NCBI GenBank assembly: GCA_003142915.1
Contig: PLNZ01000273.1
Coordinates: forward strand, 1-38,552
Length of the DNA stretch: 38,552 nucleotides
Direction: 5' to 3'
DNA from: Ignavibacteriales bacterium
GTDB taxonomy: Bacteria; Bacteroidota; Ignavibacteria; Ignavibacteriales; Ignavibacteriaceae
Numbering within the stretch: the first letter of the stretch is position 1; every line of letters starts with the position of its first letter. Both the position numbers and the translations under genes were made by a program. Shown here one piece after another: positions 5,355 to 38,229 of the stretch. The notes under the pieces are model-generated. The model was not told the DNA's origin. It worked only from the letters and a program-made list of their open reading frames with translations, and searched no databases.

Positions 5355-5381
5355 GATTCTTCTCCTAACAATTTGATACAA

Positions 5382-6542
5382 CTAAAACAGGTTAAGGAAT
5401 TGTACTTCACTAATGTAATTACTTTTAATATATTTCTCAGTGAGATAAACGGGATATAGGTGATTTGCCCACCTAGTATCTAATCCATAACATGTTGGAT
5501 TACGTTCATTAACGAGATTAGCGCTTATAAGATCGATCTCATCTGAATCTAACCCTTTTTCTTGTTCCTCATCTGAAACAAGAATCTTTTCAACCTTTAC
5601 AACGCCGTCAAAAAGGCCAACCGTCCTTTCAGTTGATCTGATTCGCAGATACCAAATACAAAATTCAACACCAGGAGCTCTTTCATTTGTATACCTGAAT
5701 GCCTGCGTTCTATGAAATAAAGGTAGTTCAGCAATTCTTTTTGCCAAAGTCTTATGGCGTTTATCTTTAAAAAGTTCAGGGTTAAAAGTTTTTGAGACAC
5801 CAACTACACATCTATAATTACTTTTGATTGCTGAGAGGTCTCTGTAATCGTCAGTTCCTATTTTTTTATATTCTATTGATCCATCTTTAATCAGATATGA
5901 TTCATTATTGAGCTTTTTTTCTTTAACAAGTTGTACCACCATTCTTTTTTCAGCTTCAACCATTTCATCTTGTATTTTAGCTATCCCTTTATTTTCATAT
6001 TTTTCTCCCTCTTTTAACTCTACATCTGGATAGCTCAGCACTTTCTGAAATGACATCCCTCTTTTTTTAATAACACTAAGATTATTTATCTTGTCTGCAA
6101 GTGAATTAAAAAATAGAGTTTTCTTATCGTCTTTATCAGCACAATCAGGCAAGACTAATACGATTTGCTTTTCAAGAAGGGATGATTTGAATATATCTGG
6201 TTGGGATCGTTTACAACAACCCACTAGAATCTGCCCAGCAATTATGGGATATATACGTTCACCATAAGAAATATCATCTACTTTGTAAGTCCTTCTGGTG
6301 CCATCCAGAAAATATCTAAAGAGAGGTTTATTATCTCGCATAATTTTATTAGCTAAGTCTTCTACTGATTTGCTTGTTCTTATGGTTTTATCTGTTTCAC
6401 ATATTTTATCTGGGCTCATGATGATAACTCTATTATCGTCATAAACAACAGTTGGGACTTCTACACCTTCGAAAGAATACCTGAAGGACTTATAATATGT
6501 TCCACCAGTATTTTCCGCTATAAAACGTAGGATCTCATTCAT
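5382..6542 (-). CDS. NurA-like nuclease (putative, RNase H-like fold)
   Basis: 386 aa, first gene of the operon, abutting the HerA-like gene. Acidic motifs FLDGTRR, IQDEMVEAE, YLIKDGSIEY, GVSKT and C-terminal HLYPVYLTE resemble NurA motifs. The call rests on weak motif recall plus the classic NurA-HerA pairing. Confidence 0.45.
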   Translation of the reverse strand: MNEILRFIAENTGGTYYKSFRYSFEGVEVPTVVYDDNRVIIMSPDKICETDKTIRTSKSVEDLANKIMRDNKPLFRYFLDGTRRTYKVDDISYGERIYPIIAGQILVGCCKRSQPDIFKSSLLEKQIVLVLPDCADKDDKKTLFFNSLADKINNLSVIKKRGMSFQKVLSYPDVELKEGEKYENKGIAKIQDEMVEAEKRMVVQLVKEKKLNNESYLIKDGSIEYKKIGTDDYRDLSAIKSNYRCVVGVSKTFNPELFKDKRHKTLAKRIAELPLFHRTQAFRYTNERAPGVEFCIWYLRIRSTERTVGLFDGVVKVEKILVSDEEQEKGLDSDEIDLISANLVNERNPTCYGLDTRWANHLYPVYLTEKYIKSNYISEVQFLNLF

Positions 6543-25219: not shown

Positions 25220-26314
25220 TTATCCTTTTGAAACCTTTCTATATTTCGTGCTTCTACCAAGCCCGATTCTTTCTATTTTTTTCAGTTTAAGTAATACTTC
25301 CAATGCCTGTTTGACGGTCGGTCGCGGAATTTTTGTTTCACGGGCAATTTCTCCTGTTCCAGCTGTATTAACATGTTCAAAAAAATCCCAGACTATAAGT
25401 TGTTTTTCTGATAATATTTTCTCTATATTTTCTTTCGACAAAAATTCAATCGCCGTTTTGGATTGCTGCAATAAAATTGTAAAAAAGAAATTGAGCCACG
25501 GAGCAACATCTTCCTTTTTAGTGTGAAAAGTCTTCTGGCTGCGCCTGAGCGCGAGATAATACTCTGCCTTGTTTTCTTCTATGAGTTTTTCGTGGGAAAC
25601 ATAAGGCATATAAAGATAGCCGCTTTGCAACAATAGCAAGTTTGTCAGAATCCTGGAAATTCTACCGTTGCCATCCTGAAAAGGATGAATTTTTAAAAAT
25701 TCAACTAAAAAATTGGCAATCACCAGCAACGGATGATATTTTTTTTGAGCTAACAATAGATTGGTTGATTCTACAAGTTCCATCATTTCTTTCGATGTAA
25801 GATGAGGAGGAGTTGGATTAAAAATTATTCCAACTTCCTTGCCTTGATTGTCATAGGCCACAACTTTATTTTCGCCGAACTTGTATTCACCCAGATGTCT
25901 TTGGTCTTTGTCGGAATATTTTAGAAGCTCCTTATGAAAATGCTTGATTGAGCTTTCACTAAATTTCAAATTTTTCCATGAATTAAAAATGTTTTCCAAA
26001 AGTTCATAATAACCTCTAACTTCTTGTTTGTCTCGATCAGCAAATTTTTGAATTTTTATGCCGCGCATCACTTTCTCAATATCTTCATCTGAAAGCTGCG
26101 CCCCTTCAATGCGAGTGGAGGCACCAGTCGAGGTTATTAAAACAGAACGTTTAAGACGTCCGAGAACTTGCGGATTTAGCTGAGCGCCTGTTATCCAACT
26201 TCCTTTTAATTCATCAATTTTGGCAATCTTTGAAATTATTTCCGTTGGAATTATATTGAGCCGTTTTGAAAATTTCTTTTCAATAACACTGCTTTTTTTC
26301 AATTTTTTGTTCAT
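25220..26314 (-). CDS. Fic-family protein (AMPylase/toxin-type) with C-terminal wHTH
   Basis: 364 aa with the canonical Fic motif HPFQDGNGRISR. Confidence 0.9.
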   Translation of the reverse strand: MNKKLKKSSVIEKKFSKRLNIIPTEIISKIAKIDELKGSWITGAQLNPQVLGRLKRSVLITSTGASTRIEGAQLSDEDIEKVMRGIKIQKFADRDKQEVRGYYELLENIFNSWKNLKFSESSIKHFHKELLKYSDKDQRHLGEYKFGENKVVAYDNQGKEVGIIFNPTPPHLTSKEMMELVESTNLLLAQKKYHPLLVIANFLVEFLKIHPFQDGNGRISRILTNLLLLQSGYLYMPYVSHEKLIEENKAEYYLALRRSQKTFHTKKEDVAPWLNFFFTILLQQSKTAIEFLSKENIEKILSEKQLIVWDFFEHVNTAGTGEIARETKIPRPTVKQALEVLLKLKKIERIGLGRSTKYRKVSKG

Positions 26315-26892: not shown

Positions 26893-27993
26893 TTGGGTAA
26901 AATAGGTCGACGCGTCTTAAAAATTTTATGTTATCCCAAATATAAATTTGCTGAAGTGAGCTTAATGTTAGACAATTCTGAATTAGATCATCAAAAGGAG
27001 TTCTATTTTCAATGGCATATTACAAATAGATGCAATCTGAGATGTAAGCACTGTTATCATGATAATTATCAAGAAATTGGACTCGATACATCGCAATTAT
27101 TAAAGATTGGTGAACATTTATGTGACGCAATTAAAAATTGGGGCAAAATTGGATCTTTTAGCATTACTGGCGGAGAGCCTTTTATGAGAAAAGATGATGT
27201 TATGCAATTACTCGATTTTTTTGATAATAGAGAAGAGATAGGGCATATTGATATTTTAACAAATGGAACATTAATTGATCAGGGAATTATAAACGATTTA
27301 AAACGATTTAAAAAAATTAGAAGAATCCAGTTTTCTTTAGAAGGACTTGAAGAAACTAATGATAAAATACGAGGCAACGGTTCATTTGATGTGATTACTA
27401 GTAAAATTAAACAACTAACAATGTGCGGATTAAAAACAAGTGTTATGATGACCATTGCAAAATATAATAAAGATGAGGTCATCCCCTTGGCGGAAAAGTT
27501 AGCAGAAGTCGGTGTTGAATCTTTTATTCTGGACAGATTTATCCCCGAAGGACAAAGTGCGGATATGAAAAAATCAGTCTTAGATTCGACTGAAATCAAA
27601 GAAATATATCAAAAATGTTATTCCTATTTCAAAAATACATTAAAGCCAAGAATGCTTTTATACAGAACTCTATTTTGTCTGCTAAATCCTGAAGACAAAC
27701 ATATTGGTGCAATATGCTCTGTCGGTAACAATGCTTTAACAATAATGCCTAATGGTGATGTTTTCCCATGTAGGCGTTTACCCATTAAATTAGGAAATAT
27801 ACTAAAAAATAGTGTTTATGAAATTTGGTATACTCATCCACTCCTGTGGGAGTTCCGAGATCCGAATAATTTAAAAGGAAAATGCAAACATTGCGAATAT
27901 ATTCCTGTTTGCAGAGGATGCAGGGCTTTTGCCTATGCCATAACTGGTGATTATTTTGAAGCTGATCCTCAATGTTGGAAGGACAATAATTGA
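26893..27993 (+). CDS. Radical SAM/SPASM-domain peptide maturase
   Basis: WHITNRCNLRCKHCY (CxxxCxxC). Cys-rich SPASM-like C-terminus CSVGNN...CRRLP...CKHCEYIPVCRGCRAFAY. The start may be ATG 26965 rather than TTG 26893. Confidence 0.85.
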   Translation: MGKIGRRVLKILCYPKYKFAEVSLMLDNSELDHQKEFYFQWHITNRCNLRCKHCYHDNYQEIGLDTSQLLKIGEHLCDAIKNWGKIGSFSITGGEPFMRKDDVMQLLDFFDNREEIGHIDILTNGTLIDQGIINDLKRFKKIRRIQFSLEGLEETNDKIRGNGSFDVITSKIKQLTMCGLKTSVMMTIAKYNKDEVIPLAEKLAEVGVESFILDRFIPEGQSADMKKSVLDSTEIKEIYQKCYSYFKNTLKPRMLLYRTLFCLLNPEDKHIGAICSVGNNALTIMPNGDVFPCRRLPIKLGNILKNSVYEIWYTHPLLWEFRDPNNLKGKCKHCEYIPVCRGCRAFAYAITGDYFEADPQCWKDNN

Positions 27994-28262
27994 ATATTGA
28001 ACTGTCTGAAGAAGTTTATTTAAAACATGATGAGGGAACTGATTGTTATTATCTTTTCTGTATCAGTAGCGGTAAGCATTTCAGCTTGAATAAAACAAGT
28101 TACAAGATTCTAATGCTTTTAAAAATGGGCAAAGATAAACAAGAGATTGCAGAATTTTTATCAAACCATTATAATATTACTTTAGATCTCTGTAAAAAAG
28201 ATATAGATGAGCTAATAGATGTTTTGCAAGAAAATAACTTATTGACAAATAAGGAGATTTAA
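27990..28262 (+). CDS. PqqD-like peptide chaperone (RiPP recognition element)
   Basis: 90 aa. CYYLFCISSGKHFSLNKTSYKILMLLKMGKDKQEIAEFLSNHYNITLDLCKKDIDELIDVLQENNLL fits the PqqD pattern. The TTG start overlaps the upstream TGA, with GGAAGG upstream. Confidence 0.7.
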   Translation: MNIELSEEVYLKHDEGTDCYYLFCISSGKHFSLNKTSYKILMLLKMGKDKQEIAEFLSNHYNITLDLCKKDIDELIDVLQENNLLTNKEI

Positions 28263-28266
28263 ATTC

Positions 28267-28428
28267 ATGAAAAAACTTAAAGAAGGAAAGATTAAAACAA
28301 AGGACACCGATTATATCAAACCAGCAATTAAGCTGGAGAAAAACATGACATTCATGTTTGAAGCAATAAAAAAATCAAATTCTAAATTAACTTGCAGACA
28401 ATGCTCATCTTGCCATGGCTGCAGATAA
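28267..28428 (+). CDS. Candidate RiPP precursor peptide (53 aa, C-terminal CxxCxxCxxC)
   Basis: Not in the ORF track (below 60 aa). AAGGAG lies 10 nt upstream of ATG 28267. MKKLKEGKIKTKDTDYIKPAIKLEKNMTFMFEAIKKSNSKLTCRQCSSCHGCR has a Lys-rich leader and four Cys at residues 43/46/49/52. It sits 4 nt after the PqqD-like gene. Confidence 0.65.
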   Translation: MKKLKEGKIKTKDTDYIKPAIKLEKNMTFMFEAIKKSNSKLTCRQCSSCHGCR

Positions 28429-29254
28429 CAATCAAAGAGTAAATAAACTATACTCTGCATTAATTAATATAATCTATGACTTTCTTGACCGCCGCTTGCC
28501 ATTAAGAAGAATTATCATTGTTGCTTCACTTTTAAAAGACTGTAATATTGTAATACCAACTTGCGATAAAATTCAAAACCGTCTTGTTAGAAAACAAAAT
28601 GATGACGGTGGTTGGGTTGATTGTGAAGACACTGCATGGTCGCTTTTTTATCTTTCAGACATAGAAAAATATGAAAATAAATTTAAAAATGGAATGCTAT
28701 GGCTTGAATCTGAAAGAAATAAAAAAAAAGGATGGGGCTTTTGCAAAAGAGATCAACCTTGTATTCCTATCACTGCGCAAATCTTGTACTTTCTTTCACA
28801 TTATCATTTAAATCATGAGGCATGTAAGTGGCTAGAAAAGGAATGGAGGAAAGATATTTTATCCCCATTCAAGCTCAATTACAAAGCTGCATGGTATTTA
28901 CTTGCTTATAAGAATCACGTGCACACGAAATTGCTTTCTGAAGAATTATTTAATGAAACCATTCATTACTTAGTTAAAGAGCAGAGAAATGATGGAGGTT
29001 GGGGGCCTTGGAAAAATCATCCAGCGCAAAGTGATTGCTTTATTACAGGTATCTGTATGGGCGCTCTTGCTCTTTCATATTCACTGAATAAAGATAAAAT
29101 AATTATTAAGTCTTTAAGAAAAGGGATTCCTTGGGTTGAGAATAATCAACTAAATAATGGTTTATTCCCAACGCACTATATTGAAGAAGGTTCGTCTTGG
29201 ATATTTTGGGGATGGAGCAAAACAATGGATGTGCTTAATGGATGCAGTTTATGA
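28415..29254 (+). CDS. Prenyltransferase/squalene-cyclase-repeat (alpha-alpha toroid) protein
   Basis: Repeated QxxDGGW-type motifs: QNDDGGWVDCEDTAWSL, KKKGWGFC, QRNDGGWGPWKNHP. The start overlaps the last 5 codons of the precursor ORF. Confidence 0.6.
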   Translation: MAADNNQRVNKLYSALINIIYDFLDRRLPLRRIIIVASLLKDCNIVIPTCDKIQNRLVRKQNDDGGWVDCEDTAWSLFYLSDIEKYENKFKNGMLWLESERNKKKGWGFCKRDQPCIPITAQILYFLSHYHLNHEACKWLEKEWRKDILSPFKLNYKAAWYLLAYKNHVHTKLLSEELFNETIHYLVKEQRNDGGWGPWKNHPAQSDCFITGICMGALALSYSLNKDKIIIKSLRKGIPWVENNQLNNGLFPTHYIEEGSSWIFWGWSKTMDVLNGCSL

Positions 29255-30336
29255 AGATATTATTGATTGGTAAATATCCACCATTGCAGGGTGGAATATC
29301 ATCAAAAACCTACTGGTTATACAGATATCTTGAGAAGAAAGGTTTTGAATTCAGAATAGTAACCGTGGCAGCAGATGCTTACACTATAAATAAATACCAT
29401 AACGATCCAAATGTAACCGTCGTAAATGAGAAAAAATCACCTTGGCATATACCGGAAACAGATCTACTGGATGATAGATTAATTAATGAAGCCAAAAAGA
29501 TAGCGCTTGATTTCTGCCCAGACTTGATTGAAACAAACTACTTATGGCCTTTCTGTAAAGATGCACTTTTGATTTCTAAAATATTAAAAAAACCACTACT
29601 TATCCGACATGCCGGAAGTGATATTATAAAATTTAGCAAGGATAAGGAATACCTCGAGATTATGGAAAGCTATTTCAGTCATGCATCTGCAATAGCTACA
29701 AACAGTACGTCTGTTAAACTTGTTAATAAATTATGTGGCTTCGATAGCAAGACTTTTCTTATGCAACGATACATACCTGATCCGTCAATTTTCAAACATA
29801 TCGAATCTGAAAAGCCTTTTCATATATTATTTACAGGAAAAATTAATTATCATTGGCAACACAAGGGCTTATTGTTATTGCTGGAGATCATTAAAGAACA
29901 TAAGCTTAAGGCTCTTTTTGTTATTGGCGGGCTTTATAAGAACAAATTGCTGGAGGAAATATCTTTTAATGGCATTGATGAGCTCATTCATATCTCGGAG
30001 TTTGTACCACCCGAAAACATGCCTCTGATTTATAACTCATGTAAATTTGTATGGGCATGGGAAGAAGAAGGGAACGTAGAAGACTTCCCCAATATTATTT
30101 GGGAGTCACTTTACAGTGGTACTTCTTGTATCGTAAACTCTGCATTTGCCGCAAAACTAAGAAATGAAAAAATACCAGAATGTTTTTCTAGTCTCATTAG
30201 AAATTTTGATGCACATAACATCATGGGATTTGAATTCACTATTCAAAAAAAAGATGTTGAATGTAACCATATAAAAGATGATTTATTTAACAAATACGTT
30301 TATGATAATATCAATCTTTATACCAACATAACATAG
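29242..30336 (+). CDS. GT-B fold glycosyltransferase (GT4-like)
   Basis: MKILLIGKYPPLQGGISSKTYWL N-terminus and a C-terminal EEEGNVEDFPNIIWESLYSGTSCIV (E-x7-E-like) region. Alternative ATG at 29251. Confidence 0.7.
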   Translation: MQFMKILLIGKYPPLQGGISSKTYWLYRYLEKKGFEFRIVTVAADAYTINKYHNDPNVTVVNEKKSPWHIPETDLLDDRLINEAKKIALDFCPDLIETNYLWPFCKDALLISKILKKPLLIRHAGSDIIKFSKDKEYLEIMESYFSHASAIATNSTSVKLVNKLCGFDSKTFLMQRYIPDPSIFKHIESEKPFHILFTGKINYHWQHKGLLLLLEIIKEHKLKALFVIGGLYKNKLLEEISFNGIDELIHISEFVPPENMPLIYNSCKFVWAWEEEGNVEDFPNIIWESLYSGTSCIVNSAFAAKLRNEKIPECFSSLIRNFDAHNIMGFEFTIQKKDVECNHIKDDLFNKYVYDNINLYTNIT

Positions 30337-30350
30337 AAATGTAGATAATT

Positions 30351-31535
30351 ATGATCTTATCACATATTTTCACTAATGACATTGGACCGGGTATGTTGTT
30401 TAATGTACCTGATCACCCTGTAAATGTTATGTTAGACATCACGAATGATTGTAACAATCGGTGCATTTATTGTTATAACCCTGATAGCTCAATTGGCCAT
30501 GGTGGCTCGCCTGATCCAAATAATCTAAAAAAAATTGTGTCCATTCTCGGATTGTCAGGTACAAAGGAGATTCTCTATTTAGGCGGTGAGCCGTTTTCTT
30601 TACCTGCTTTCATTGAAATATTAGAGACAGGTAGGAAATACAATATTTTCCAACGCACTGTCAGTAATGGCAGCTTCTTAACAGATACGTATATATGTCG
30701 TGATTTTAAAGAGAAAGGCCTTGATGAGGTTGGAATATCTTTTCACTCTTCTGATGAAGCAGTCCATGATAGGATTACCAACAGAAAGGGTTCATTTCAA
30801 GAGGCTGTATTAAGTCTCCAAAATTGCATATTAGCTGGAATATCGTCATTCATTCAATACTCACCTAATCGATTTAATTCATCCCGCGATATTCTGAAGC
30901 TTGCAGAATATATAAAAATACTTTTCGGTGACGAGGTTAAATATTTCGATATCAACAGATTGCTGCCTATAGGACGAGGACAGAAGGCACAATCCGTATT
31001 TCTTGAAAACGATGAATGGTTTGAGTTTCTAGTACAAGCTGCAATGCTAAGAAGATATGGGTTTGATGTTCATGCAGAATTGACACCTTTCTGCTGGATA
31101 AATCATAAAGCAAAAGAAAACAACATTTCAGCTAATACGCTAAATGAAGTCTACAAAATGAATCGTGGTTGCTATATGTGGATTGCGCAACTGGCTCTCG
31201 ATTATAATGGCGGAATTAAATTCTGCCCTACCGGTCCAGCAGTTGGTCCGTCGATAATTGATGTTAAATGGCCTAGCTTTTGGAAGACATGGGAGGAGTT
31301 TAAGAGGTACCGTAGCTTTTTATGGAATGATAAATGTGTTGATTTCGATACAAAAAATGCTTGTTCTTTTTTTTATCAGTGTCTTGGAGGATGTAAATAT
31401 TCAAAAGGTACGCCTTATCAAATGGATCATTACACAATAGGTCTACAAAATAATTTAAATGAGGAGTATAAAAATGAAAAAATCATCAAAGACAAACAGA
31501 GTTATAATTCTGAAGGGGTCACCTGGTGTCGGTAA
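30351..31535 (+). CDS. Second radical SAM/SPASM-like enzyme
   Basis: DITNDCNNRCIYCYN (CxxxCxxC). C-terminal Cys cluster CYMW...CPTGP...CVDFDTKNACSFFYQCLGGCKY. Confidence 0.8.
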   Translation: MILSHIFTNDIGPGMLFNVPDHPVNVMLDITNDCNNRCIYCYNPDSSIGHGGSPDPNNLKKIVSILGLSGTKEILYLGGEPFSLPAFIEILETGRKYNIFQRTVSNGSFLTDTYICRDFKEKGLDEVGISFHSSDEAVHDRITNRKGSFQEAVLSLQNCILAGISSFIQYSPNRFNSSRDILKLAEYIKILFGDEVKYFDINRLLPIGRGQKAQSVFLENDEWFEFLVQAAMLRRYGFDVHAELTPFCWINHKAKENNISANTLNEVYKMNRGCYMWIAQLALDYNGGIKFCPTGPAVGPSIIDVKWPSFWKTWEEFKRYRSFLWNDKCVDFDTKNACSFFYQCLGGCKYSKGTPYQMDHYTIGLQNNLNEEYKNEKIIKDKQSYNSEGVTWCR

Positions 31536-32019
31536 GTCATTTACAGCGCGCAAACTTGTTTCGCAACTCAAAAGTAAGAAAATCGCACTTATTTCCATTG
31601 ATGAATTACTCCACATCGATCAGCGCAATCTTTGTGAAGACAAACTGAAACTAGCTAAGTATAATGCAGCAATTCTTACGCGAAGTTTTCTAAGTGATAA
31701 ATTTGATATCATTATTGAATATACATTTGATATTCCGCAGCACTTAGAATTTCTGATTGACAAAATTAAGCATAGCCATGTGGACATATTACCCAAGTCG
31801 GATATTCATATTTTTCATCTTACGGCAAAGTTTACTGAAGTAAAGAAACGCAATAAGACAAGAAGAGATGGTACGGATCCCTTGCCGGATATTATCCTTG
31901 AGAAACTATATAAATCTTGCGAGAAAACTGCCGGAAAGGTTAAAGATGAAATCATAATAGAATCTGACAAAATATCATTAAAGCAAGTCGTCGATCAGAT
32001 CATGGGCAACTTGAAATGA
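31474..32019 (+). CDS. P-loop kinase/AAA-type NTPase (small-molecule or nucleotide kinase-like)
   Basis: Walker A ILKGSPGVGKSF. About 180 aa. GAGGAG lies 7 nt upstream of ATG 31474. Overlaps the rSAM 3-prime end by 62 nt. Confidence 0.65.
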   Translation: MKKSSKTNRVIILKGSPGVGKSFTARKLVSQLKSKKIALISIDELLHIDQRNLCEDKLKLAKYNAAILTRSFLSDKFDIIIEYTFDIPQHLEFLIDKIKHSHVDILPKSDIHIFHLTAKFTEVKKRNKTRRDGTDPLPDIILEKLYKSCEKTAGKVKDEIIIESDKISLKQVVDQIMGNLK

Positions 32020-32879
32020 TAATTGATCTACATCTGCACAGTCATTATAGCCCTGATGGCAGACATTCCATTCCGCAGCTTCTTGATTTGTTTTCAGAGG
32101 GGGACATTGCTGGATTAACAGATCATGAGACAATAGGTGGATGGCCGGAGTTTGAGAAAGAAGCAAATAAAAGGGGCATTAAGCCTGTTTTGGGTATTGA
32201 ATGGTTCGCGCCAGGTTGCCATATATTAGCCTATTTCTTTGATGGTGTACCCAACGCATTCTATCAATATATGAAAGCACGTCGCGCAACTGAAAAAAGC
32301 TGTATGCATACTCTGTATGAAGAATTCAGAAAGGATAACCCCCGGCTTAAACCCTATAATGAAGCCCTTAAACTGCGAGCCCACCCTGAAAATATTCTCG
32401 GCCTTCCTGGATTTGCGGAAGCAGTCTCAAAAGCATCTGACATTGCACAAGAAGACGCAGAAGATATTGTGAGAAGACAAAAAAGAGCAATGCCCGATGG
32501 CACACGCCCTGAACCTTTTAATCCAGAAGAAATAATAAAGAACATTAATGGCTGGAATGCTGTGCCAGTTTTAGCACACCCTTATAGGTGTTCACAAGGC
32601 AAGGATGGTCGAGAAAAAAAAGAAACTGTAGAAAATAAAATTAGAGAACTCGCTAATGCAGGAATAAAAGGTGTTGATGTATACTCTTGGAACAGCAACC
32701 AAGAAGAGCTGGAACATCTTTTGGGACTTTGTGATGAATTAAAGCTTGCCCCTATTGTAGGGTCAGATTTCCATCACGCAAATAAAGGCTTGCGTCCTCA
32801 AGATCTGAATGCATTGGATAGAAAACTTATACAGAGGATATTTGAATGGATCGAAAATTTGGCAGCGCCTACTCTTTAA
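32016..32879 (+). CDS. PHP-family metal-dependent phosphoesterase
   Basis: IDLHLHSHYSPDG, GLTDHETIGG and VLAHPYR motifs. ATGA start/stop overlap with the kinase gene. Confidence 0.8.
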   Translation: MIIDLHLHSHYSPDGRHSIPQLLDLFSEGDIAGLTDHETIGGWPEFEKEANKRGIKPVLGIEWFAPGCHILAYFFDGVPNAFYQYMKARRATEKSCMHTLYEEFRKDNPRLKPYNEALKLRAHPENILGLPGFAEAVSKASDIAQEDAEDIVRRQKRAMPDGTRPEPFNPEEIIKNINGWNAVPVLAHPYRCSQGKDGREKKETVENKIRELANAGIKGVDVYSWNSNQEELEHLLGLCDELKLAPIVGSDFHHANKGLRPQDLNALDRKLIQRIFEWIENLAAPTL

Positions 32880-35593
32880 GAGATTTCGCATTTCCGCAAG
32901 AAAATCGGAAAGACATTTCGGACTGCATTAATCTAATTATGAATACCCTGTCCTTCAGAAAGCTAGCTGGTAAGACCCAAGTAATATTATCATTGGCTGG
33001 TCCGGATGTTAGGACACGACTTACCCACACTATCGAGGTTTCAAGAATTGCAAAAGAAATATGCAGTCGACTTGATTTAAATGCTGATCTTGCAGAAGCC
33101 ATTGCCCTAGCTCATGATATAGGACATACTCCTTTTGGTCATGTGGGGGAAAGAACGCTTAGGGAAATCATGTGTGGTTGCAATACTCTAGGAGGTAAAA
33201 TCAGTGATTGTGATTTTGCAAACTCTGGATTTAAGCATAATTTACAAAGTTTCCGCGTATTGACAGATTTGGAGCAGATATGTACAAAAAATGATATTTG
33301 GTCGCCCATATTATGGGGTGCTTTAAACCATACAAATATGACGTGGTCAAAATCATATTCAGGTATTGATTATGAGATATTAATATCCTCTAGCCATTGT
33401 AATTGGGTTCATGTATGTTATTACGATGAAAAAAAGGAATGTAAACGTAATATACAGAAAAAGAAAAGCAAAATAATAGCTTCTGAGAATAATTCAATTT
33501 GTAAGCCTTGGTACTGCGCAAATCTTCCAATTGTAGATAATAAGGATGATGTCACAGAGAACGTTCTGTATAATGGAGAAACAACCCAAGACTATTTAAA
33601 AAAGGAACCAATTAGAAGAGAATTTGTTGAGAAGATATATTGTTCTCATCAATGCTATATGGCAAAACTCTGGAAATACAAACAAGCAAATTTTAAGAGC
33701 TATCGTCAATACCATTATTTATATGATCATCCATTTCCTAATAGCTTCTATGCTGGCGGTGTGCATGACTTCTTTGCCAATAAAATTAATGGTAAAAATA
33801 GTAAATCAGATTATGTTACAGTGGAAGCACAAATTGTCTGTCAGGCAGATGAAATTGCACAAAGGCAACAAGACCTCGAAGATGGAATTAGCAAAGGATT
33901 ACTATCTTTCAGTGATACGAAAGAACATATTAGAAAATTACTAAAAATATTTGATTCTGAAAACCAAAAAATCAAAAAACTTTCAAAAGAACTTACTGAA
34001 ATAGTGAAGCCAGATAAGCTAGGCAAACTGCTAGTTGACTTCTATATCGAATTGATTGTAGCTGGATCTATGAAATATTTCGCTTATTTTGGCAAAGAAA
34101 TAAATCCTCAGTTGATAAATATATATAGCTTGCTCAATATTCTCTATTATATGTCAGACAACCTAAGTCATAAAAGCAAATGGCTTATAGAGGAGCTGAA
34201 ATCACCTGTTCTTAATAATACTGAAAAAAAACATCTTACGAATAAGATTATTGGGAGTCGCGTATTCAGGCCTAATTACGATATTGGATATCTATATCTT
34301 ACGATCTATGATCATCTGGAAAATCAAATTAAGATATACGGATATTCAAAGAATTTGTCTAAAATCCTTTGTTTATTCATATCTCACGTAAAAATAAATA
34401 AAAAAAGAGCAAAAGCGAAGAATAAATTGGAAAGTATTGAGAAAAACATTAAAGATATTATCAGTAGCGAATTATATATATCAAAAATAAAAAAAATTAT
34501 AAGCCGATTAATGAAGATAAAACCGTCAGATTCCAATAAGCTTTCATGTAAAGATATCGCATGCGACTATGTTAAAAGTAGTTCAAGCATACTGAATTAC
34601 CATTTTATCCTTGCATTAGATAATATGCGGGATTATTTGAAGAATGCTTATACAAAAGAAAGTAAAGTATTTTTCCAAAATAAGGATAAAACACCATGGA
34701 AAAATCTTGGTACGTTGAATTTGCCCCAGTTTTACACATTATCAAAAATTCATAAAAAGTGTTTCATAGGGGAAAATACAATTATATGTGCCAGAGATCT
34801 TACAAAATTTGCCTATGGAAATGATGGATATAAAACAAGGCAGGCATTTCTAAGATGGAAGGAAATTTTGGGCAATGATGGTCATAAAGTACTAAATAAT
34901 TATGTGCAATTTGTTTTTAAAAACGATGAAAAACAAGCAAAGATAGATGATTTTAAAGAAAAACAAAAAAACACGATATTAAAAAGTGAATCTGTGGAAA
35001 AAAATGACGGTAAAGCAGGTTACATCTTAACGAGATTATTTAAAGCTTATATATCCAACTCACACCAATTACCAGATATGGGTCTCAAAATGATATTTAA
35101 CACCCTTCAGAATGAAAAAATATGTGATAAATTAAAACAAAAAGAAAATGAAAAATTTGAAGACATATTAAGTAATTTGAAAAAGACTTTACCAGAAAGT
35201 AGTCAAACAAACGAGAAAATGGCTAAAATTAAATCCGCCAAATTTATGAAAATTACTAAAGATGAATTTGATGATCTTAAGGAAAATGTTTCCAGTGAAA
35301 TTAAAGCAGCTTTAGACAATAGATGGAAGCTATATGAATTCATTCGGCAAATGAAAAAAGATAAAAGTAAATTGCAGAAATACTTGAACAGCGATAAAGA
35401 TAAGGACATCGGGAGTTTAAATGAATATTTAGGTAAATTCAGAGCCATTCTTGACAATCCCTTTCTTAATCCCACCCCATTCTGGAAAAGTATACTTACT
35501 CGGGGGATATGTGATTATATTGCCGGATTAACTGACCAAGAGGCCATAAATGAATACGAAAAACTTTATGCCGGCATCATGGAATTAGTTTAA
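32846..35593 (+). CDS. Giant HD-domain dGTPase-like triphosphohydrolase (915 aa)
   Basis: FRKLAGKTQV, RLTHTIEVSRIAKEI, LAHDIGHTPFGHVGE, QADEIAQRQQDLEDGI and C-terminal ICDYIAGLTDQEAINEYEKLY match dGTPase/SAMHD1-family landmarks. Several hundred extra K/N-rich residues lie between them. Confidence 0.8.
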   Translation: MDRKFGSAYSLRDFAFPQENRKDISDCINLIMNTLSFRKLAGKTQVILSLAGPDVRTRLTHTIEVSRIAKEICSRLDLNADLAEAIALAHDIGHTPFGHVGERTLREIMCGCNTLGGKISDCDFANSGFKHNLQSFRVLTDLEQICTKNDIWSPILWGALNHTNMTWSKSYSGIDYEILISSSHCNWVHVCYYDEKKECKRNIQKKKSKIIASENNSICKPWYCANLPIVDNKDDVTENVLYNGETTQDYLKKEPIRREFVEKIYCSHQCYMAKLWKYKQANFKSYRQYHYLYDHPFPNSFYAGGVHDFFANKINGKNSKSDYVTVEAQIVCQADEIAQRQQDLEDGISKGLLSFSDTKEHIRKLLKIFDSENQKIKKLSKELTEIVKPDKLGKLLVDFYIELIVAGSMKYFAYFGKEINPQLINIYSLLNILYYMSDNLSHKSKWLIEELKSPVLNNTEKKHLTNKIIGSRVFRPNYDIGYLYLTIYDHLENQIKIYGYSKNLSKILCLFISHVKINKKRAKAKNKLESIEKNIKDIISSELYISKIKKIISRLMKIKPSDSNKLSCKDIACDYVKSSSSILNYHFILALDNMRDYLKNAYTKESKVFFQNKDKTPWKNLGTLNLPQFYTLSKIHKKCFIGENTIICARDLTKFAYGNDGYKTRQAFLRWKEILGNDGHKVLNNYVQFVFKNDEKQAKIDDFKEKQKNTILKSESVEKNDGKAGYILTRLFKAYISNSHQLPDMGLKMIFNTLQNEKICDKLKQKENEKFEDILSNLKKTLPESSQTNEKMAKIKSAKFMKITKDEFDDLKENVSSEIKAALDNRWKLYEFIRQMKKDKSKLQKYLNSDKDKDIGSLNEYLGKFRAILDNPFLNPTPFWKSILTRGICDYIAGLTDQEAINEYEKLYAGIMELV

Positions 35594-37329
35594 TGTGCGG
35601 CATATGTGGATTATGGGGCAATAATAACCCTGAAAAAACGACCGTAATGTTAAATGCAATAAGCCATCGTGGTCCCGATGGCAGCAACATTGCGATTTAC
35701 CCATGGGGTGCTCTTGGGTTTTGCAGGTTAGATATCTTTGGCGCTTCTGGCATTAATCAGCCGGCACTTTCCAGTGATGGGAAAACAGCAATAGTTTTTA
35801 ATGGCGAGATTTACAATTTCAAAGAACTCATATCAAAACTTCCTGCCTATAAGCAAATCAATGATGAAGCCTCTCTTATTTTAGAATTATATCTATTGTT
35901 TGGTGAACAATGCTTCACAATGCTTAAAGGTATGTTCGCAATCGCGATCATGGCCCCCGACAAAATCTTTTTAGCGCGAGACGCTGTTGGTATTAAACCT
36001 CTTGTCTACTATACCGCTAATAATTGTATATATTTTGCCTCAGAGATAAAAGCATTGCTCAGAATAAAAGATGACATGATTGAAATAGATGATGAGGCTT
36101 TAGCTGAAACAGCGGTTTTTGGTTTTATATTTGATCTGGAAAAAACGATGTTTAAAGGGATTAAACAGATACGTCCGGGATGTTTCATCAAATATCAAGA
36201 TAACAAAATAAGCACTGAGCGGTTTCATACTCTAAAGTCTTCATATTATGATGATAAGATTGCAGAGAAAATATTCATCGATGATTTCAGCAACCTTATG
36301 GATAAATCAACCCAATGTCAGATTAATCATTCCAAGCATCCTCAAGCAATCTATCTTTCCGGTGGTATTGATTCTGCATTGATGACATATTTCATGCGGA
36401 AAAATTCAGCGGATACTATTTATACATATAATTTATTCGATTCAGAAAACAACGAAGACAGGCGCTATGCCGCTTTGGTCTCCAAAGCTTTTAAAACAGA
36501 CCATGTTGAACACAAAACAAATGTGGCGGAATGCTTAAATTTTTTTGACCATTATCTCTATCATTATGAGTCACTGGTAACTGATGGTATTTTTAATGTA
36601 CTTGGTAGTCTTGCCTTTCATTTATTGTCATATCAGATTAGTAAGAAATTTAAAGTAGCTTACTGTGGTGAAGGCGCGGATGAGCTCTTTGGCGGTTACT
36701 ATTGGATGCATACACATCCTCTTGGTTTTGCCGACAGAATCCGTATGAGATCAAAAAAAGTCAATTATGGGAAAACAAAGATCAATGAATATATAATGGA
36801 TAAATTTCCGCCAGATGATTCTAAAGAAAAAGAAATGCAGAGAGAAATATTCGATATCTTGATGGGTCCAGGATTAACAAACTGCCACCTGTGGAGCGTT
36901 GATCGATCAAGCTCCGCATTCTCTTTTGAAGCAAGACCATTTTATTTATATGATGATATTAGAGATTGGGCACTCTCTCTACCTATTGAAAATAAAGTAA
37001 AGGATAAAAATAACACAAAATTAGTCTTGAAAAGATATGCCCATAAATCCGACTGTCAACTATTAAATGATATTGCTTCGCGAAAAAAAATTGGAATGCC
37101 GGCAGCCTTGTCTACCGCTATGAACAAACTTATTTCATATTCGGAAGATAATTATAGAAGTATCAAGGATACGCGCAATTTACCACACAAAGCATATTCT
37201 TCTTTTTTCAACACTGATTTAGAAAAAATGCTTTTCGATAGGTTTTATAACATATTCGTTAGTAATAGAGGGAAAATGATATACGAGGGCACAGATGCTA
37301 CGGTACCCGTGTTGCAAACCCTGATCTAA
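35593..37329 (+). CDS. Asparagine synthetase B-like glutamine amidotransferase/adenylating enzyme
   Basis: N-terminal nucleophile MCGICG and PP-loop YLSGGIDSALM. TAATG overlap with the upstream gene. Confidence 0.85.
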   Translation: MCGICGLWGNNNPEKTTVMLNAISHRGPDGSNIAIYPWGALGFCRLDIFGASGINQPALSSDGKTAIVFNGEIYNFKELISKLPAYKQINDEASLILELYLLFGEQCFTMLKGMFAIAIMAPDKIFLARDAVGIKPLVYYTANNCIYFASEIKALLRIKDDMIEIDDEALAETAVFGFIFDLEKTMFKGIKQIRPGCFIKYQDNKISTERFHTLKSSYYDDKIAEKIFIDDFSNLMDKSTQCQINHSKHPQAIYLSGGIDSALMTYFMRKNSADTIYTYNLFDSENNEDRRYAALVSKAFKTDHVEHKTNVAECLNFFDHYLYHYESLVTDGIFNVLGSLAFHLLSYQISKKFKVAYCGEGADELFGGYYWMHTHPLGFADRIRMRSKKVNYGKTKINEYIMDKFPPDDSKEKEMQREIFDILMGPGLTNCHLWSVDRSSSAFSFEARPFYLYDDIRDWALSLPIENKVKDKNNTKLVLKRYAHKSDCQLLNDIASRKKIGMPAALSTAMNKLISYSEDNYRSIKDTRNLPHKAYSSFFNTDLEKMLFDRFYNIFVSNRGKMIYEGTDATVPVLQTLI

Positions 37330-37604: not shown

Positions 37605-38006
37605 TTACAAAACTGAATTTATCAGGATGACATTCACACCTTTTTTTTTGTACAGACAAAGATGTGGATCAACGGTATAAATTATCGCGGCGTTATATTT
37701 TATAAAGCCGGAGAGTATTAAGGAGTCAGACATATGAAGACCGAGGCCATGAGATAGATTGGCAGCTGTCATAAATATTTCCAAATCGTCTAGCCAAGCA
37801 ATGTTGCAAATATTCTTTATAGCTTCCAATAAAGTATCAACGGAATGACTATCAATTGAACCTTTAAGGGCAAGCTTTTTCAGCTCATACAAAGAAATGC
37901 AGGAGACAACGGAGTCCTCCCCCTCCAATATTTCATTCCATACTTCCGAAGTCTGCTTATTGCCTTTGATAAGCTCGATAAAAAAGCCGGTATCAATACC
38001 TATCAT
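37605..38006 (-). CDS. vapC: PIN-domain toxin (VapC-like)
   Basis: 133 aa. MIGIDTGFFIE N-terminal acidic motif, later LYELKK and HMSDSLIL. 14-nt overlap with the upstream antitoxin gene. Confidence 0.75.
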   Translation of the reverse strand: MIGIDTGFFIELIKGNKQTSEVWNEILEGEDSVVSCISLYELKKLALKGSIDSHSVDTLLEAIKNICNIAWLDDLEIFMTAANLSHGLGLHMSDSLILSGFIKYNAAIIYTVDPHLCLYKKKGVNVILINSVL

Positions 38007-38229
38007 GCGACTCGGCCCTCATGGTTTCTATGTCTTTATGAATGTCTTTGGAAACACGCGCCTTGCCGATAAGACCTAAAACTTTCATTCCACTTTCCCT
38101 TTTCTTTTTTAGAAGAACGTAATTCTGGACAGCATCAGTTATCACTGAAGATACAGACTTTTTTTCATTGTCTGCGAAAGTTTTAACGACCCTTCCAATG
38201 TTGTCGGGAATGTTTGCCGTTATTCTCAT
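37993..38229 (-). CDS. vapB: Antitoxin (RHH/AbrB-like, VapB-type)
   Basis: 78 aa. MRITANIPDNIGRVVKTFADNEKKSVSSVITDAVQNY. GGAGATGG SD upstream. Operonic with the PIN gene. Confidence 0.65.
   Translation of the reverse strand: MRITANIPDNIGRVVKTFADNEKKSVSSVITDAVQNYVLLKKKRESGMKVLGLIGKARVSKDIHKDIETMRAESHDRY

Follow-up and report, generated by a model that had tools for sequence, protein, structure and literature searches.

The window analysed here is the whole 38,552-nt stretch of DNA, and the feature under study is a small gene at positions 28267 to 28428, which encodes a peptide of 53 amino acids plus a stop codon (ATG at 28267, TAA at 28426-28428). This gene and the other cluster genes given with coordinates below are located on the plus strand. 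The Shine-Dalgarno sequence AAGGAG (28251-28256) lies 10 nt 5' of the ATG, and a GGAG- or AGGA-type site was also present upstream of the peptide ATG at most of the related loci. The preceding PqqD gene ends at 28262, which leaves a gap of 4 nt. The four Cys residues of the peptide are residues 43, 46, 49, and 52, and the ATG of the next gene, encoding an α/α toroid protein, is found at 28415-28417 within the codons of His50 and Gly51 (cATGgc), with the toroid gene overlapping the last 14 nt of the peptide gene. An earlier note on this DNA, made from the letters alone, had listed most of these features, and re-reading confirmed the coordinates, the length and the sequence of the peptide, the position of AAGGAG, the 4-nt gap, the Cys at every third residue near the C-terminus, and the start of the toroid gene inside the Cys-rich codons. 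The note also called the ORF unannotated, which was true of its own ORF track only, since public gene callers do call the peptide. The exact 53-aa product was called by the JGI, ENA, and NCBI gene callers on every contig examined. It was found in 134 blocks of the searched collection, on metagenome-assembly contigs of JGI, ENA, and NCBI including three NCBI genome assemblies and the ENA record WOOD18, and the annotation was always hypothetical protein.

The motif C-x-x-C-x-x-C-x-x-C occurred once in the six frames of the whole window, and its mean count in 200 dinucleotide-preserving shuffles of the window was 0.02, or 0.005 when located at the end of an ORF. Scans of the window with Rfam and for tRNA gave no match, and promoter and terminator scans of the window did no better than on shuffled sequence. 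The AF2 model of the peptide had a pLDDT of 66.6 and a pTM of 0.20, with a pLDDT of 56-58 in the Cys region, and no autonomous fold is thus predicted for the peptide.

Homologous small ORFs were found at 79 related loci, the window included, which encoded 65 distinct peptides. These loci came from Desulfobacterales, Acididesulfobacter, Bacteroidales, Thermoanaerobaculales, Bathyarchaeia, Thermoproteota, and metagenomes, and spanned at least six bacterial and archaeal lineages. The peptides shared one layout, in which Y-x-[KR]-P-x-[FIYL] was followed at a nearly fixed spacing by the terminal sequence C-x-Q-C-[SA]-x-C-H-[GA]-C-[RK]-stop; the distance from the Tyr to the C-terminus was 37-39 residues in 103 unique sequences. 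Among the 53 distinct DNA sequences of the core, the residues C, Q, C, C, H, and C were invariant, and the codons were mixed (TGC/TGT, CAA/CAG, CAT/CAC, TCN and AGY for Ser, AGR and CGN for Arg, and all three stops). Since the residues are invariant while the synonymous codons vary freely, selection acts on the protein. The same pattern was seen in the comparison with the closest variant, L016, which showed eight amino acid changes, all within residues 1-20, and only three synonymous changes with no replacement in the last 33 codons. An antisense ORF of 49 aa (28311-28460) was rejected as a true gene because the synonymous-site pattern matched the plus-strand frame. The earlier note had let its reading depend on a conserved small ORF in homologous clusters and on constraint at the codon level; the former was found at 79 loci, and the latter was evident as clear synonymous variation around the invariant residues. 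The sequence comparisons indicate that the ORF is a real gene under protein-level selection rather than a product of chance.

Profile searches enlarged the family, returning 903 clusters at 90% identity and, at 50% identity, 272 cluster representatives; all are unnamed. No Pfam or NCBIfam model, that of SCIFF included, matched the peptide (NCBIfam to E = 10), and judged from these models it belongs to no named family. The family is a large and unnamed one of ribosomal peptides common to Bacteria, Archaea, and their viruses. Members occurred in 9 of the 185,579 species genomes, which makes the distribution very sparse and patchy. No member was found in E. coli genomes, GenBank phages, or PLSDB plasmids, and the family seems to be confined to uncultured, mostly anaerobic environments. 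The system has probably spread horizontally, with a single precursor gene at each locus and a gene order that is conserved even into the archaea.

Two segments of the peptide were strongly conserved. The leader motif Y16-I-K-P19-A-I21 is encoded at 28312-28329; Y16 and P19 were invariant in two alignments, and F29 was invariant too. The leader pattern of the family fits the published motif [Y/W]xxPx[LVIFA], which is bound by discrete lasso-type RREs (PMC13381572). By its sequence, the motif belongs to the kind that discrete PqqD/RRE proteins bind, and such binding is predicted here. The second segment, the core C43-R-Q-C-S-S-C-H-G-C-R53 (28393-28425), is the presumed modification site at the C-terminus of the peptide. 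It contains no acidic residue, and its only conserved carboxylate is the C-terminus itself. This invariant core of 11 residues provides a clean target for new radical SAM chemistry on cysteine.

The genes immediately upstream encode the presumed partners of the peptide. The radical SAM/SPASM enzyme rSAM1 (26965-27993, 342 aa; 366 aa from an alternative TTG start at 26893) is the presumed primary maturase and matched the Pfam models Radical_SAM (1.7e-20) and SPASM (2.6e-11). The CxxxCxxC motif and seven further Cys residues were invariant, and the enzyme has a complete set of the conserved SPASM cysteines. The PqqD-family protein (27990-28262; Pfam PqqD, 3e-10) is a presumed leader-binding chaperone of the RRE type, and its best NCBIfam models were the PqqD chaperones of lasso peptides. 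Both rSAM1 and PqqD were present at all 47 loci with at least 2 kb of upstream sequence. The earlier note placed the peptide between two rSAM/SPASM genes. The second of these enzymes (rSAM2) is not adjacent, as the toroid and glycosyltransferase genes intervene, and it has no Pfam SPASM match.

We consider it probable (about 0.8) that the ORF is a translated gene whose product is the substrate peptide of a radical SAM/SPASM system that relies on a discrete RRE, has spread horizontally, and had not been described before. The proposal of the earlier note, a precursor peptide that belongs with the adjacent radical SAM and PqqD genes, is well supported because homologues exist at 79 loci, codon constraint reveals selection on the protein, the leader contains an RRE-type motif, the linkage to rSAM1 and PqqD is strict, and a wider set of genes is conserved with them. 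Its genetic linkage and its leader/core organization are those of the generic class of RiPP precursors for RRE-dependent rSAM/SPASM enzymes, in which modification of the core is predicted. Residues 1-42 would serve as the leader, with Y16-x-K-P19-x-I21 separated by an almost constant spacing from the C-terminal core of 11 residues. The PqqD protein would bind this leader and present the core to rSAM1, whose radical chemistry would be centred on the four core cysteines. The toroid, whose translation is coupled to that of the peptide, would follow, together with the GT4 glycosyltransferase and the AsnB-like enzyme.

The chemistry of rSAM1 was approached through its relatives. Its best NCBIfam model was that of the ACGX rSAM (TIGR04340), with an E-value of 1e-56 and 192.6 bits, where the cut-off is 400. 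The scores for PapB (87.8/340), AlbA (84.1/850), StsB (78.8/625), not_ScfB (68.5/855), MftC (105/265), and PqqE (74.1/381) were also below their cut-offs. The nearest solved structures were CteB (5wgg), with only 54 bits, and SkfB (6efn), both of which form thioethers. By HMM, no thioether synthase was closer to rSAM1 than were the AhbD/NirJ tetrapyrrole enzymes and SbtM. Thioether cross-links from Cys sulfur to carbon, as in sacti- and ranthipeptides, are a tentative assignment that comes solely from distant similarity to thioether synthases; we give them odds clearly short of even, and the remaining odds are shared by Cys-derived heterocycles and other reactions. Formylglycine formation of the anSME type on C-H-G-C-R was rejected, with no anSME model among the 25 best NCBIfam matches of rSAM1.

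The earlier note had likened the layout of the peptide to that of sacti/ranthipeptide or SCIFF-like substrates; membership in these classes is not supported, with no SCIFF match for the peptide and a maturase below every curated cut-off. The present system resembles those of SCIFF/CteB, PapA/PapB, subtilosin AlbA, and SkfB in its short precursor with a Cys-rich C-terminus, its SPASM rSAM enzyme, and its PqqD-like RRE. However, the RRE here is a separate protein whereas theirs is an N-terminal domain of the enzyme, and the core here is nearly invariant, with Cys at every third position and one residue after the last Cys; SCIFF has six Cys residues, and the present core has four. To our knowledge, sacti- or ranthipeptide clusters do not include, as partner enzymes, a toroid, an AsnB-like protein, a GT4 enzyme, or a large hydrolase of the HD/MBL kind. 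The putative substrates of the ACGX system (TIGR04340/TIGR04341) are small peptides with regularly spaced Cys, and its chemistry is, as far as we know, uncharacterised. It supplies the best-scoring rSAM family for rSAM1, but at less than half of the cut-off, and ACGX repeats do not occur in the present peptide.

The idea of a secreted bacteriocin of the classical sacti- or ranthipeptide kind, perhaps with the S-prenylation by the toroid that the earlier note had raised, would agree with a maturase nearest to CteB and SkfB among solved structures, with the Cys-rich C-terminus, and with the two ABC exporter genes and the MarR regulator upstream of the cluster in the window or the MatE gene upstream in L108. 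The exporters were not conserved: the ABC exporters and MarR were rejected as parts of the system, being missing from the closest relatives, including L028 with 89% identity. Neither a leader protease nor a double-Gly site was present, all models of bacteriocin families scored under their cut-offs, and the core is nearly invariant across phyla with one precursor per locus. We therefore regard a bacteriocin as very unlikely. The near-invariance of the core also counts against the substrate model as such, being unusual for RiPP antibiotics; a cofactor or a small metal-binding protein would fit it equally well.

The toroid (28415-29254, 279 aa; Pfam SQHop_cyclase_C), for which 160 homologues were found, consists of a single α/α toroid domain and was modelled by AF2 with a pLDDT of 94. 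Its sequence profile matched squalene-hopene cyclase (E = 2e-14), and its top Foldseek matches were drimenyl-diphosphate synthase, monodomain cyclases, and MstE, with TM scores of 0.67-0.73. Like the class II terpene cyclases, it has QW-type repeats and an α/α barrel, and D69-C-E-D-T-A74, a motif of the toroid family, aligns to D374-V-D-D-T-A of squalene-hopene cyclase, with Glu replacing the central Asp. No terpenoid substrate pathway was found near this single-domain protein. Class II terpene cyclases thus appear to be its closest relatives in sequence and modelled structure, and its enzymatic activity is only putative. The earlier note had recognized the toroid fold class correctly, but had compared the protein to the β subunit of protein prenyltransferases; neither this subunit nor LanC was among the 50 Foldseek matches listed. 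By Pfam, no isoprenoid gene was present in the cluster, and no conserved gene family of the related loci matched a prenyl-donor enzyme. For this reason S-prenylation of Cys by a cyclase-like toroid has little support, which further weakens the bacteriocin in its prenylated form.

The genes downstream of the toroid encode a glycosyltransferase of the GT4/GT1 type (29242-30336; Pfam Glycos_transf_1 and Glyco_trans_4_2); the accessory radical SAM enzyme rSAM2 (30351-31535; Pfam Radical_SAM, 4e-21), which resembled NirJ2 and AhbD by NCBIfam at scores below the cut-offs and showed by eye a SPASM-like Cys pattern at the C-terminus; an accessory small P-loop kinase-like protein (31459-32019; Pfam nSTAND3 and AAA_33, with a weak PSTK-like NCBIfam match); and an accessory PHP-domain phosphoesterase (32016-32879; Pfam PHP, 2.5e-11). 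They are followed by a 915-aa HD-domain protein with a dGTPase-like N-terminus (32846-35593; Pfam HD and HD_assoc, PADLOC dGTPase 4e-57) and by an AsnB-like glutamine amidotransferase/PP-loop adenylating enzyme (35593-37329), which contains an N-terminal MCGI and the motif SGGIDS and scored 270.3 bits against a cut-off of 267.1 for TIGR01536. At the 31 loci with at least 6 kb of downstream sequence, the glycosyltransferase was present in 30, the AsnB-like protein in at least 28, and either the unassigned c9 protein or a large protein of the HD or MBL fold in 29, and the accessory genes were less frequent (rSAM2 in 18, the kinase-like protein and the PHP phosphoesterase in 14 each). The large hydrolase is of the HD type in the cluster type of the window and is replaced by an MBL-fold protein of about 1000 aa in others, and the AsnB homologue of archaeal-type loci is a PP-loop domain alone. 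The toroid, the GT4 enzyme, the AsnB-like protein, and one large hydrolase of HD or MBL fold thus make up the wider conserved set. Lanthionine formation by the kinase and the toroid was also rejected, since the cores of some family members, such as CRQCAGCHGCR of L022, contain no Ser or Thr and the kinase is missing from most cluster types. No RiPP pathway known to us unites an rSAM/SPASM enzyme and a discrete RRE with a terpene-cyclase-like toroid of one domain, an AsnB-like adenylating enzyme, a GT4 enzyme, and a large HD/MBL hydrolase, and our literature search found neither this combination of enzymes nor a description of the peptide system.

Lasso peptides share with the present system the RRE-type leader motif, the lasso-like PqqD chaperone models, and an AsnB homologue as a core enzyme. 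However, no B2 cysteine protease is found here, nor any protease domain in the cluster, the core has no Asp or Glu for an isopeptide ring, and the invariant partner is a radical SAM enzyme; the AsnB-like protein scored 270 bits as a Gln-dependent asparagine synthase, but 138.5 against a cut-off of 525 as a lasso cyclase. Since the C-terminus is the only conserved carboxylate of the core, C-terminal amidation or ligation is the likeliest step for the AsnB-like enzyme. Because the related loci contained no conserved protease or exporter and the large hydrolase is nearly universal, the product most likely stays within the cell and works together with the large HD/MBL hydrolase. Export of the product is still possible, since exporter genes adjoin some of the clusters.

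The four Cys residues and the CxxCH of the core could also bind a metal or haem in a simple manner, and the ORF might then encode an unmodified small metal-, Fe-S-, or haem-binding protein, with the role of a subunit or chaperone and not that of a substrate. The invariance of the four Cys and one His is consistent with this, as are CSSCH, which matches the haem c attachment motif and gave weak cytochrome-c-type NCBIfam matches (E 0.015-0.05), the resemblance of CHGCR in the peptide to CRGCR in the SPASM motif of rSAM1, and the phage copies that have no maturase nearby. The strict linkage to rSAM/SPASM and PqqD/RRE at 47 of 47 loci, the RRE-type motif of the leader, and the AF2 model with no confident fold in the Cys region argue against it. 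Covalent haem c on CSSCH was rejected as unlikely because inspection by eye showed no signal peptide and the genes annotated in the cluster included none for Ccm (cytochrome c maturation). The metal- or haem-binding protein is accordingly an unlikely reading overall, if not so remote as the bacteriocin.

We judge only slightly less improbable that the peptide is the precursor of a cofactor or metallophore for anaerobic metabolism, either PQQ/mycofactocin-like or made of O2-independent Cys-derived heterocycles that bind metal. Its invariant C-terminal core recalls PqqA and MftA, the association of rSAM/SPASM, PqqD, and a glycosyltransferase follows the gene logic of mycofactocin, and the named host lineages are generally known as anaerobes. 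SbtM, which was among the best matches of rSAM1, has been reported to make thiooxazoles from Cys (PMC12538549). Against this, no releasing peptidase, cognate dehydrogenase, or metal transporter was conserved, the MftC and PqqE scores were far under cut-off, the distribution is too sparse and patchy to suit it, the clusters are located in mobile or defence islands and not among metabolic genes, and the orphan phage copies are hard to explain. The mycofactocin and PQQ systems resemble the present one in the rSAM/SPASM enzyme, the PqqD chaperone, the strongly conserved C-terminus of the precursor, and, for mycofactocin, the glycosyltransferase, whereas the present clusters lack a peptidase and a flavoenzyme, and their precursor lacks a Gly-Val-Tyr C-terminus or a Glu/Tyr pair.

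The genomic setting of the clusters looks like that of a host-phage conflict. Restriction-modification genes (HsdR, HsdM, Eco57I-like type IIG) were located within 4.2 kb in 9 of the 30 host loci with at least 3 kb of flanking sequence, a raw count over loci that are phylogenetically non-independent. Most of them were on the same strand as the cluster, and in L088 the gene overlaps the start of rSAM1. The cluster of the window is flanked by a SoFic-like Fic gene (PADLOC 1.4e-43) and a PIN toxin pair with a transposase, and its upstream side carries a serine recombinase, ArdC, and a primase. The peptide was also found on at least 59 viral contigs (IMG/VR) and three further phage-like contigs, on which phage hallmark genes were confirmed. 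In tblastn searches no rSAM1, PqqD, toroid, or GT gene was located within 10 kb of the viral peptide genes, and profile scans found neither the toroid nor a genuine rSAM1 in the whole viral collection. Leader features that are specific to each subtype of host cluster recurred in the phage peptides, with up to 87% identity, and the orphan copies hint at a role in the conflict between host and virus. The earlier note had not mentioned the orphan phage copies, the setting in defence islands, or the wider set of conserved genes.

In one reading of these observations, the matured peptide is a regulatory or antitoxin-like partner of the HD/MBL hydrolase in an anti-phage RiPP system of the abortive-infection type, and phages counter it with precursors of their own that are matured by the stable enzymes of the host. 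This reading extends the precursor-peptide explanation and does not exclude it. It draws on the restriction-modification neighbours, the position of the window cluster between the Fic gene and the PIN pair, the viral orphan peptides that match the host clusters by subtype, the nearly universal hydrolase with no conserved protease or exporter, and the precedent of the lanthiphages, class I lanthipeptide clusters of Actinobacteria described as anti-phage and colocalised with defence systems (bioRxiv 10.1101/2024.06.26.600839). However, PADLOC v2.0 has no system model for the core genes; its matches were limited to a generic similarity of the rSAM core to pVip and to the HD-domain dGTPase, and PqqD, the toroid, the GT, AsnB, the MBL protein, and c9 had none. 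The adjacency of restriction-modification genes could merely mirror insertion into variable genomic islands, and the 9 of 30 counts non-independent loci. Phage copies were often located in the late modules for packaging or heads, not with the early genes, and a fully functional phage copy would yield the same product as the host, which fits an antidote but not a simple decoy. We hold the anti-phage role to be possible but doubtful. Still more speculative is a specific form of it, a new anti-phage system in which the modified peptide controls the HD/MBL protein as a hydrolase of nucleotides or nucleic acids, for example as a labile inhibitor, and phages of several lineages, jumbo phages included, escape by orphan peptides that mimic the leader and core of each host subtype and are matured in the host.

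Like the lanthiphages, the present clusters are RiPP clusters near defence systems, but they encode rSAM/PqqD instead of LanB/LanC, their defence function is only inferred, and the lanthiphage abstract does not mention phage-borne copies of a precursor. The subtype-matched orphan copies and the defence-gene neighbours make a host-virus role of a matured ribosomal peptide directly testable, a role with almost no precedent outside the lanthiphages. Phage mimics of antitoxins, such as T4 Dmd and pseudo-ToxI, act on abortive-infection toxin-antitoxin systems. The likeness lies in a stand-alone phage copy of a small, labile component whose host counterpart is a hydrolase; unlike those mimics, the small component here would need maturation by host enzymes, and its antidote role is hypothetical.

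That phage copies encode the peptide with no maturases nearby is an observation that counts against the substrate model. The sole cluster enzyme within 10 kb of the viral copies was the AsnB-like gene, on two viral contigs. On a viral contig of 316 kb, with no other enzymes within 10 kb, a PP-loop-only AsnB homologue directly abuts two peptide genes.

On sequence evidence, the peptide ORF is a gene under protein-level selection. It runs from the ATG at 28267 to the TAA at 28426-28428 and, read from the window sequence, encodes MKKLKEGKIKTKDTDYIKPAIKLEKNMTFMFEAIKKSNSKLTCRQCSSCHGCR. The ribosome-binding AAGGAG at 28251-28256 lies 10 nt upstream of the ATG, 4 nt separate the end of the ORF of PqqD, a discrete RRE-type protein, from the start of the peptide gene, and the ATG of the following toroid gene (28415) is formed by the His50 and Gly51 codons of the peptide. 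The sequence bore out the ORF position, Shine-Dalgarno spacing, gap and overlapping start described in the earlier note. The ORF had also been called unannotated, which did not hold, since gene callers predict the exact product in public data; the 53-aa product was called as a gene on every contig examined, among them a JGI contig of 2 Mb and three genome assemblies at NCBI, and was indexed in 134 blocks of the collection. The string C-x2-C-x2-C-x2-C occurred once in the six-frame translation of the whole window, and 200 dinucleotide-preserving shuffles of the window gave a mean of 0.02 occurrences per shuffle, and 0.005 at an ORF end.

A word-indexed search with the peptide alone returned near-identical copies and one variant of 85% identity, and nothing more distant. 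All eight replacements in this variant were confined to residues 1-20, and its final 33 codons contained three synonymous changes and zero replacements. Distant relatives were reached with the 279-aa toroid as the anchor. The alignment of 160 toroid homologues retrieved nine loci from species genomes (Acididesulfobacter, Desulfobacteraceae, Bacteroidales, Thermoanaerobaculales, Deltaproteobacteria, Desulfobacterales, Bathyarchaeia and Thermoproteota) as well as eighty metagenomic loci. Small ORFs with the terminal pattern C-x-Q-C-[SA]-x-C-H-[GA]-C-[RKS]-stop were found in 79 loci and represented 65 distinct peptides (window and locus L016 included); in the loci without one, the start of the toroid anchor always lay within about 720 nt of the contig end. 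The core residues C, Q, C, C, H and C were unchanged across 53 distinct core DNA sequences, with their synonymous codons mixed (Cys TGC/TGT about 60:40, Gln CAA/CAG 26:27, His CAT/CAC 39:14). In the same sequences the core Ser was encoded by both TCN and AGY, Arg by both AGR and CGN, and all three types of stop codon followed the core. Such invariant residues with free synonymous codons show purifying selection at the codon level on the plus-strand frame. The precursor-peptide proposal of the earlier note was thus upheld on the two points named as able to refute it, as homologous clusters contained a conserved small ORF and its conservation followed the codons. Pfam and NCBIfam contain no model of the peptide. 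A profile search of 5.8 billion proteins gave 903 peptide-family clusters at 90% identity, of which every named one was a hypothetical protein, and an exhaustive HMM search of 1.84 billion representatives gave 272 matches at E ≤ 0.001 and 165 at E ≤ 1e-10; the 150 HMM matches listed were 40-114 aa in length, with the alignment reaching the C-terminus. The family is large, unnamed, and common to hosts and phages.

In the peptide-family alignments, Tyr16 and Pro19 were invariant within the leader pattern Y-x-[KR]-P-x-[FIYL], Phe29 was invariant or nearly so, and the core was invariant. Of 103 unique sequences, 84 had a spacing of 38 residues from the Tyr to the C-terminus and the others one of 37 or 39, and the last core Cys was always penultimate, followed by one residue and the end. 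The motif Y-x-x-P-x-hydrophobic, which the leader matches by pattern, is the recognition motif of discrete lasso-type RRE proteins, and another RiPP family was recently shown to depend on it for RRE binding too (PMC13381572). PqqD would bind the leader, and rSAM1, the radical SAM/SPASM enzyme encoded upstream, would then modify the Cys-rich core. The AlphaFold2 model of the peptide, built with 42 family members, had a pLDDT of 66.6 and a pTM of 0.20, with one short helix at residues 29-35; this low-confidence model, which leaves metals out, is more in keeping with a substrate in extended form than with a small domain that folds on its own. The alternative of a metal-binding protein that acts unmodified was weakened. 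The segment C46-S-S-C49-H50 (28405-28416), an invariant C-[SA]-x-C-H, is formally a CxxCH haem c attachment motif. This part of the core gave weak cytochrome-c-type NCBIfam matches (E 0.015-0.05); inspection by eye showed no signal peptide, and the genes annotated in the cluster included none for cytochrome maturation. The SPASM segment of rSAM1 (27880-27900) has the sequence C-x2-C-EYIPV-C-R-G-C-R, in which the final five residues are similar to the C-H-G-C-R of the peptide (28411-28425); this may be a coincidence or a hint of the core imitating an Fe-S-binding loop.

Linkage of the peptide gene to genes for an rSAM/SPASM enzyme and for a discrete RRE is strict. In the window, the operon consists of rSAM1 (26965-27993), PqqD (27990-28262), the peptide (28267-28428) and the toroid (28415-29254), followed in order by a GT4 glycosyltransferase, a second radical SAM enzyme (rSAM2), a P-loop kinase, a PHP phosphoesterase, a 915-aa HD protein and an AsnB-like enzyme. 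By tblastn and all-against-all clustering of the related loci, rSAM1 and PqqD were present in 47/47 loci with at least 2 kb upstream. Among the 31 loci with at least 6 kb downstream, GT4 was found in 30, the AsnB-like enzyme in at least 28, one large hydrolase in 29, rSAM2 in 18, the kinase and PHP in 14 each, and a B12-binding rSAM in six; the large hydrolase was counted as the HD protein in 17 loci, as an MBL-fold protein of about 1000 aa in 12 and as an unassigned protein of about 580 aa in 6. In archaeal-type loci, the AsnB-like enzyme was cut down to its PP-loop domain alone, and the MBL protein gene stood between the peptide and the toroid. In near-identical copies of the locus in other assemblies (L003, L005, L006, L012, L013), rSAM2, the HD protein, Fic and one ABC gene were in some cases split into two or three ORFs, reflecting either accessory-gene decay or assembly error, and the peptide, rSAM1, PqqD, toroid, GT and AsnB genes were unbroken.

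Besides its CxxxCxxC, rSAM1 contained seven more invariant Cys. Its best solved relatives were the thioether synthases CteB and SkfB, then MoaA, PqqE and SuiB, and its best HMMs were those of an uncharacterised ACGX rSAM, AhbD, SbtM and NirJ2, every one below the cut-off. Thioether cross-links would be the single likeliest outcome of rSAM1 action, at a probability of roughly one in three, with SbtM-like heterocycle formation or other chemistry as alternatives. The way of working resembles that of RRE-dependent rSAM RiPP pathways, and the system fell outside the SCIFF, ACGX, lasso, mycofactocin and PQQ families by their membership tests, with rSAM1 also below the cut-offs of the PapB and AlbA models; the alternative of a cofactor or metallophore precursor was also weakened. 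The AsnB-like protein, with its N-terminal Cys (MCGI) and SGGIDS PP-loop, scored above the TIGR01536 cut-off and would activate the C-terminal carboxylate of the peptide, the only conserved carboxylate of the core. No conserved protease or exporter was found among the related loci; the upstream ABC exporters and MarR of the window were missing even in an 89%-identical relative (L028), and a MatE gene adjoined the cluster in L108. The view of the peptide as a classical bacteriocin was weakened as well, and we propose that the product would work intracellularly, together with the large hydrolase.

The AlphaFold2 model of the toroid was confident (pLDDT 94.3). Its best Foldseek matches were class II terpene cyclases at TM 0.65-0.73, namely drimenyl-diphosphate synthase, monodomain squalene-hopene cyclases, MstE and classical squalene-hopene cyclase, and neither prenyltransferase beta nor LanC was among the 50 matches listed. 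The family profile matched squalene-hopene cyclase at E = 2e-14 via QW-type repeats, with the nearly invariant D69-C-E-D-T-A74 aligned to D374-V-D-D-T-A, the catalytic motif of the cyclase. The toroid consists of one domain in which Glu replaces the central Asp of this motif, and isoprenoid genes were not found nearby. The Cys S-prenylation once considered for this protein gained no specific support. The toroid and the glycosyltransferase might tailor or hold the product.

Phage copies surfaced when peptide-family members were looked up on long contigs. One came from a 512-kb contig that consists of small genes and encodes HNH endonucleases and an AcrVA2-like protein; within 10 kb of this copy there was no maturase. 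Two more belonged to genomes that are plainly those of tailed phages. In one of these genomes the peptide gene lies between the head protease region and a putative capsid gene, beside a GpA terminase and a portal gene; in the other, a head-tail connector and an integrase are close by. Scanned against IMG/VR, the peptide profile picked out 59 viral contigs. Within 10 kb, tblastn with representatives of every cluster enzyme from three cluster types gave zero matches to rSAM1, PqqD, toroid or GT and AsnB-like matches in only two contigs; against the whole viral collection, the toroid profile found nothing and the rSAM1 profile retrieved only three sequences, of which two were unrelated rSAMs and the third was an N-terminal fragment of 52 aa. 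When the genes of 61 viral loci were clustered, 31 of these loci contained clusters whose representatives matched PHROG terminase, portal, adaptor or virion families. The orphan peptides of tailed phages (L112-L170 from IMG/VR, L106/L107, L175, L176) carried the full leader motif and core, often in or beside the terminase/portal/head module, as at L176 10001-10156 and between TerL and portal in L127. They retained the leader Tyr and Pro, the spacing and the core, and mirrored, for each host cluster type, the leader segments specific to that subtype; identity to a host peptide reached 87% (median 63%). In L140 (9227-10379; 316-kb contig IMGVR_UViG_3300037067_008064), a PP-loop-only AsnB-like gene of 262 aa was followed, after a single base, by two peptide genes in tandem. 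This minimal pairing is the best clue for the AsnB-like enzyme acting on the peptide itself. The first of these peptides was a variant of 63 aa in which an additional Cys-rich insert, CQDCKTELCYRECIHFAALG, precedes the normal core, and L157 contained a similar extended variant. A phage short ORF of about 52 codons from Met (L173 5986-6156, IMGVR_UViG_3300027865_000019) matched only the N-terminal CxxxCxxC region of rSAM1 (AEFYMQWHLTNRCNNRCKHCYQQSY...) and might represent either the remnant of a recombination event or a mimic in truncated form.

What could turn out to be categorically new is the distribution between hosts and phages; PADLOC contained no model for this system, and a description of it was not found in the literature. 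The reading of the entire cluster as a module for defence or addiction, with the phage copies as countermeasures, is speculative and rather unlikely. In the window, a SoFic-like Fic gene (25220-26314, reverse strand; PADLOC 1.4e-43) lay directly upstream of the cluster and a PIN-domain toxin with a 78-aa partner (37605-38229, reverse strand) directly downstream, with a Transposase_mut gene beyond the PIN pair on longer contigs (L004, L008). Of 30 host loci whose flank measured 3 kb or more, 9 had restriction-modification genes within 4.2 kb of the cluster, either type I (HsdR, HsdM) or Eco57I-like type IIG, and most of these genes shared its strand. Such genes stood directly upstream of rSAM1 in L088 (5538-8396), L099 (3-2153), L034 (1071-7592), L050, L025 (1-2172) and L103, and the type IIG gene of L088 overlapped the rSAM1 start by 13 nt. 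As a raw count over loci that are not independent, the adjacency is suggestive and no more than that. Farther upstream, the window segment 8000-14400 encoded an ArdC-like anti-restriction protein, a DnaG-type primase zinc-ribbon protein and a 534-aa large serine recombinase, and its GC content was raised (42-49% over about 8-12 kb versus about 30-36% in the first 8 kb), which suggests an integrative mobile element beside the cluster. A four-gene operon at 259-6542 (reverse strand) encoded proteins of 638, 512, 564 and 386 aa with little or no annotation; one had an HATPase_c_3 domain and one a weak match to mad8 (methylation-associated defence), so that the operon is possibly a further defence system.
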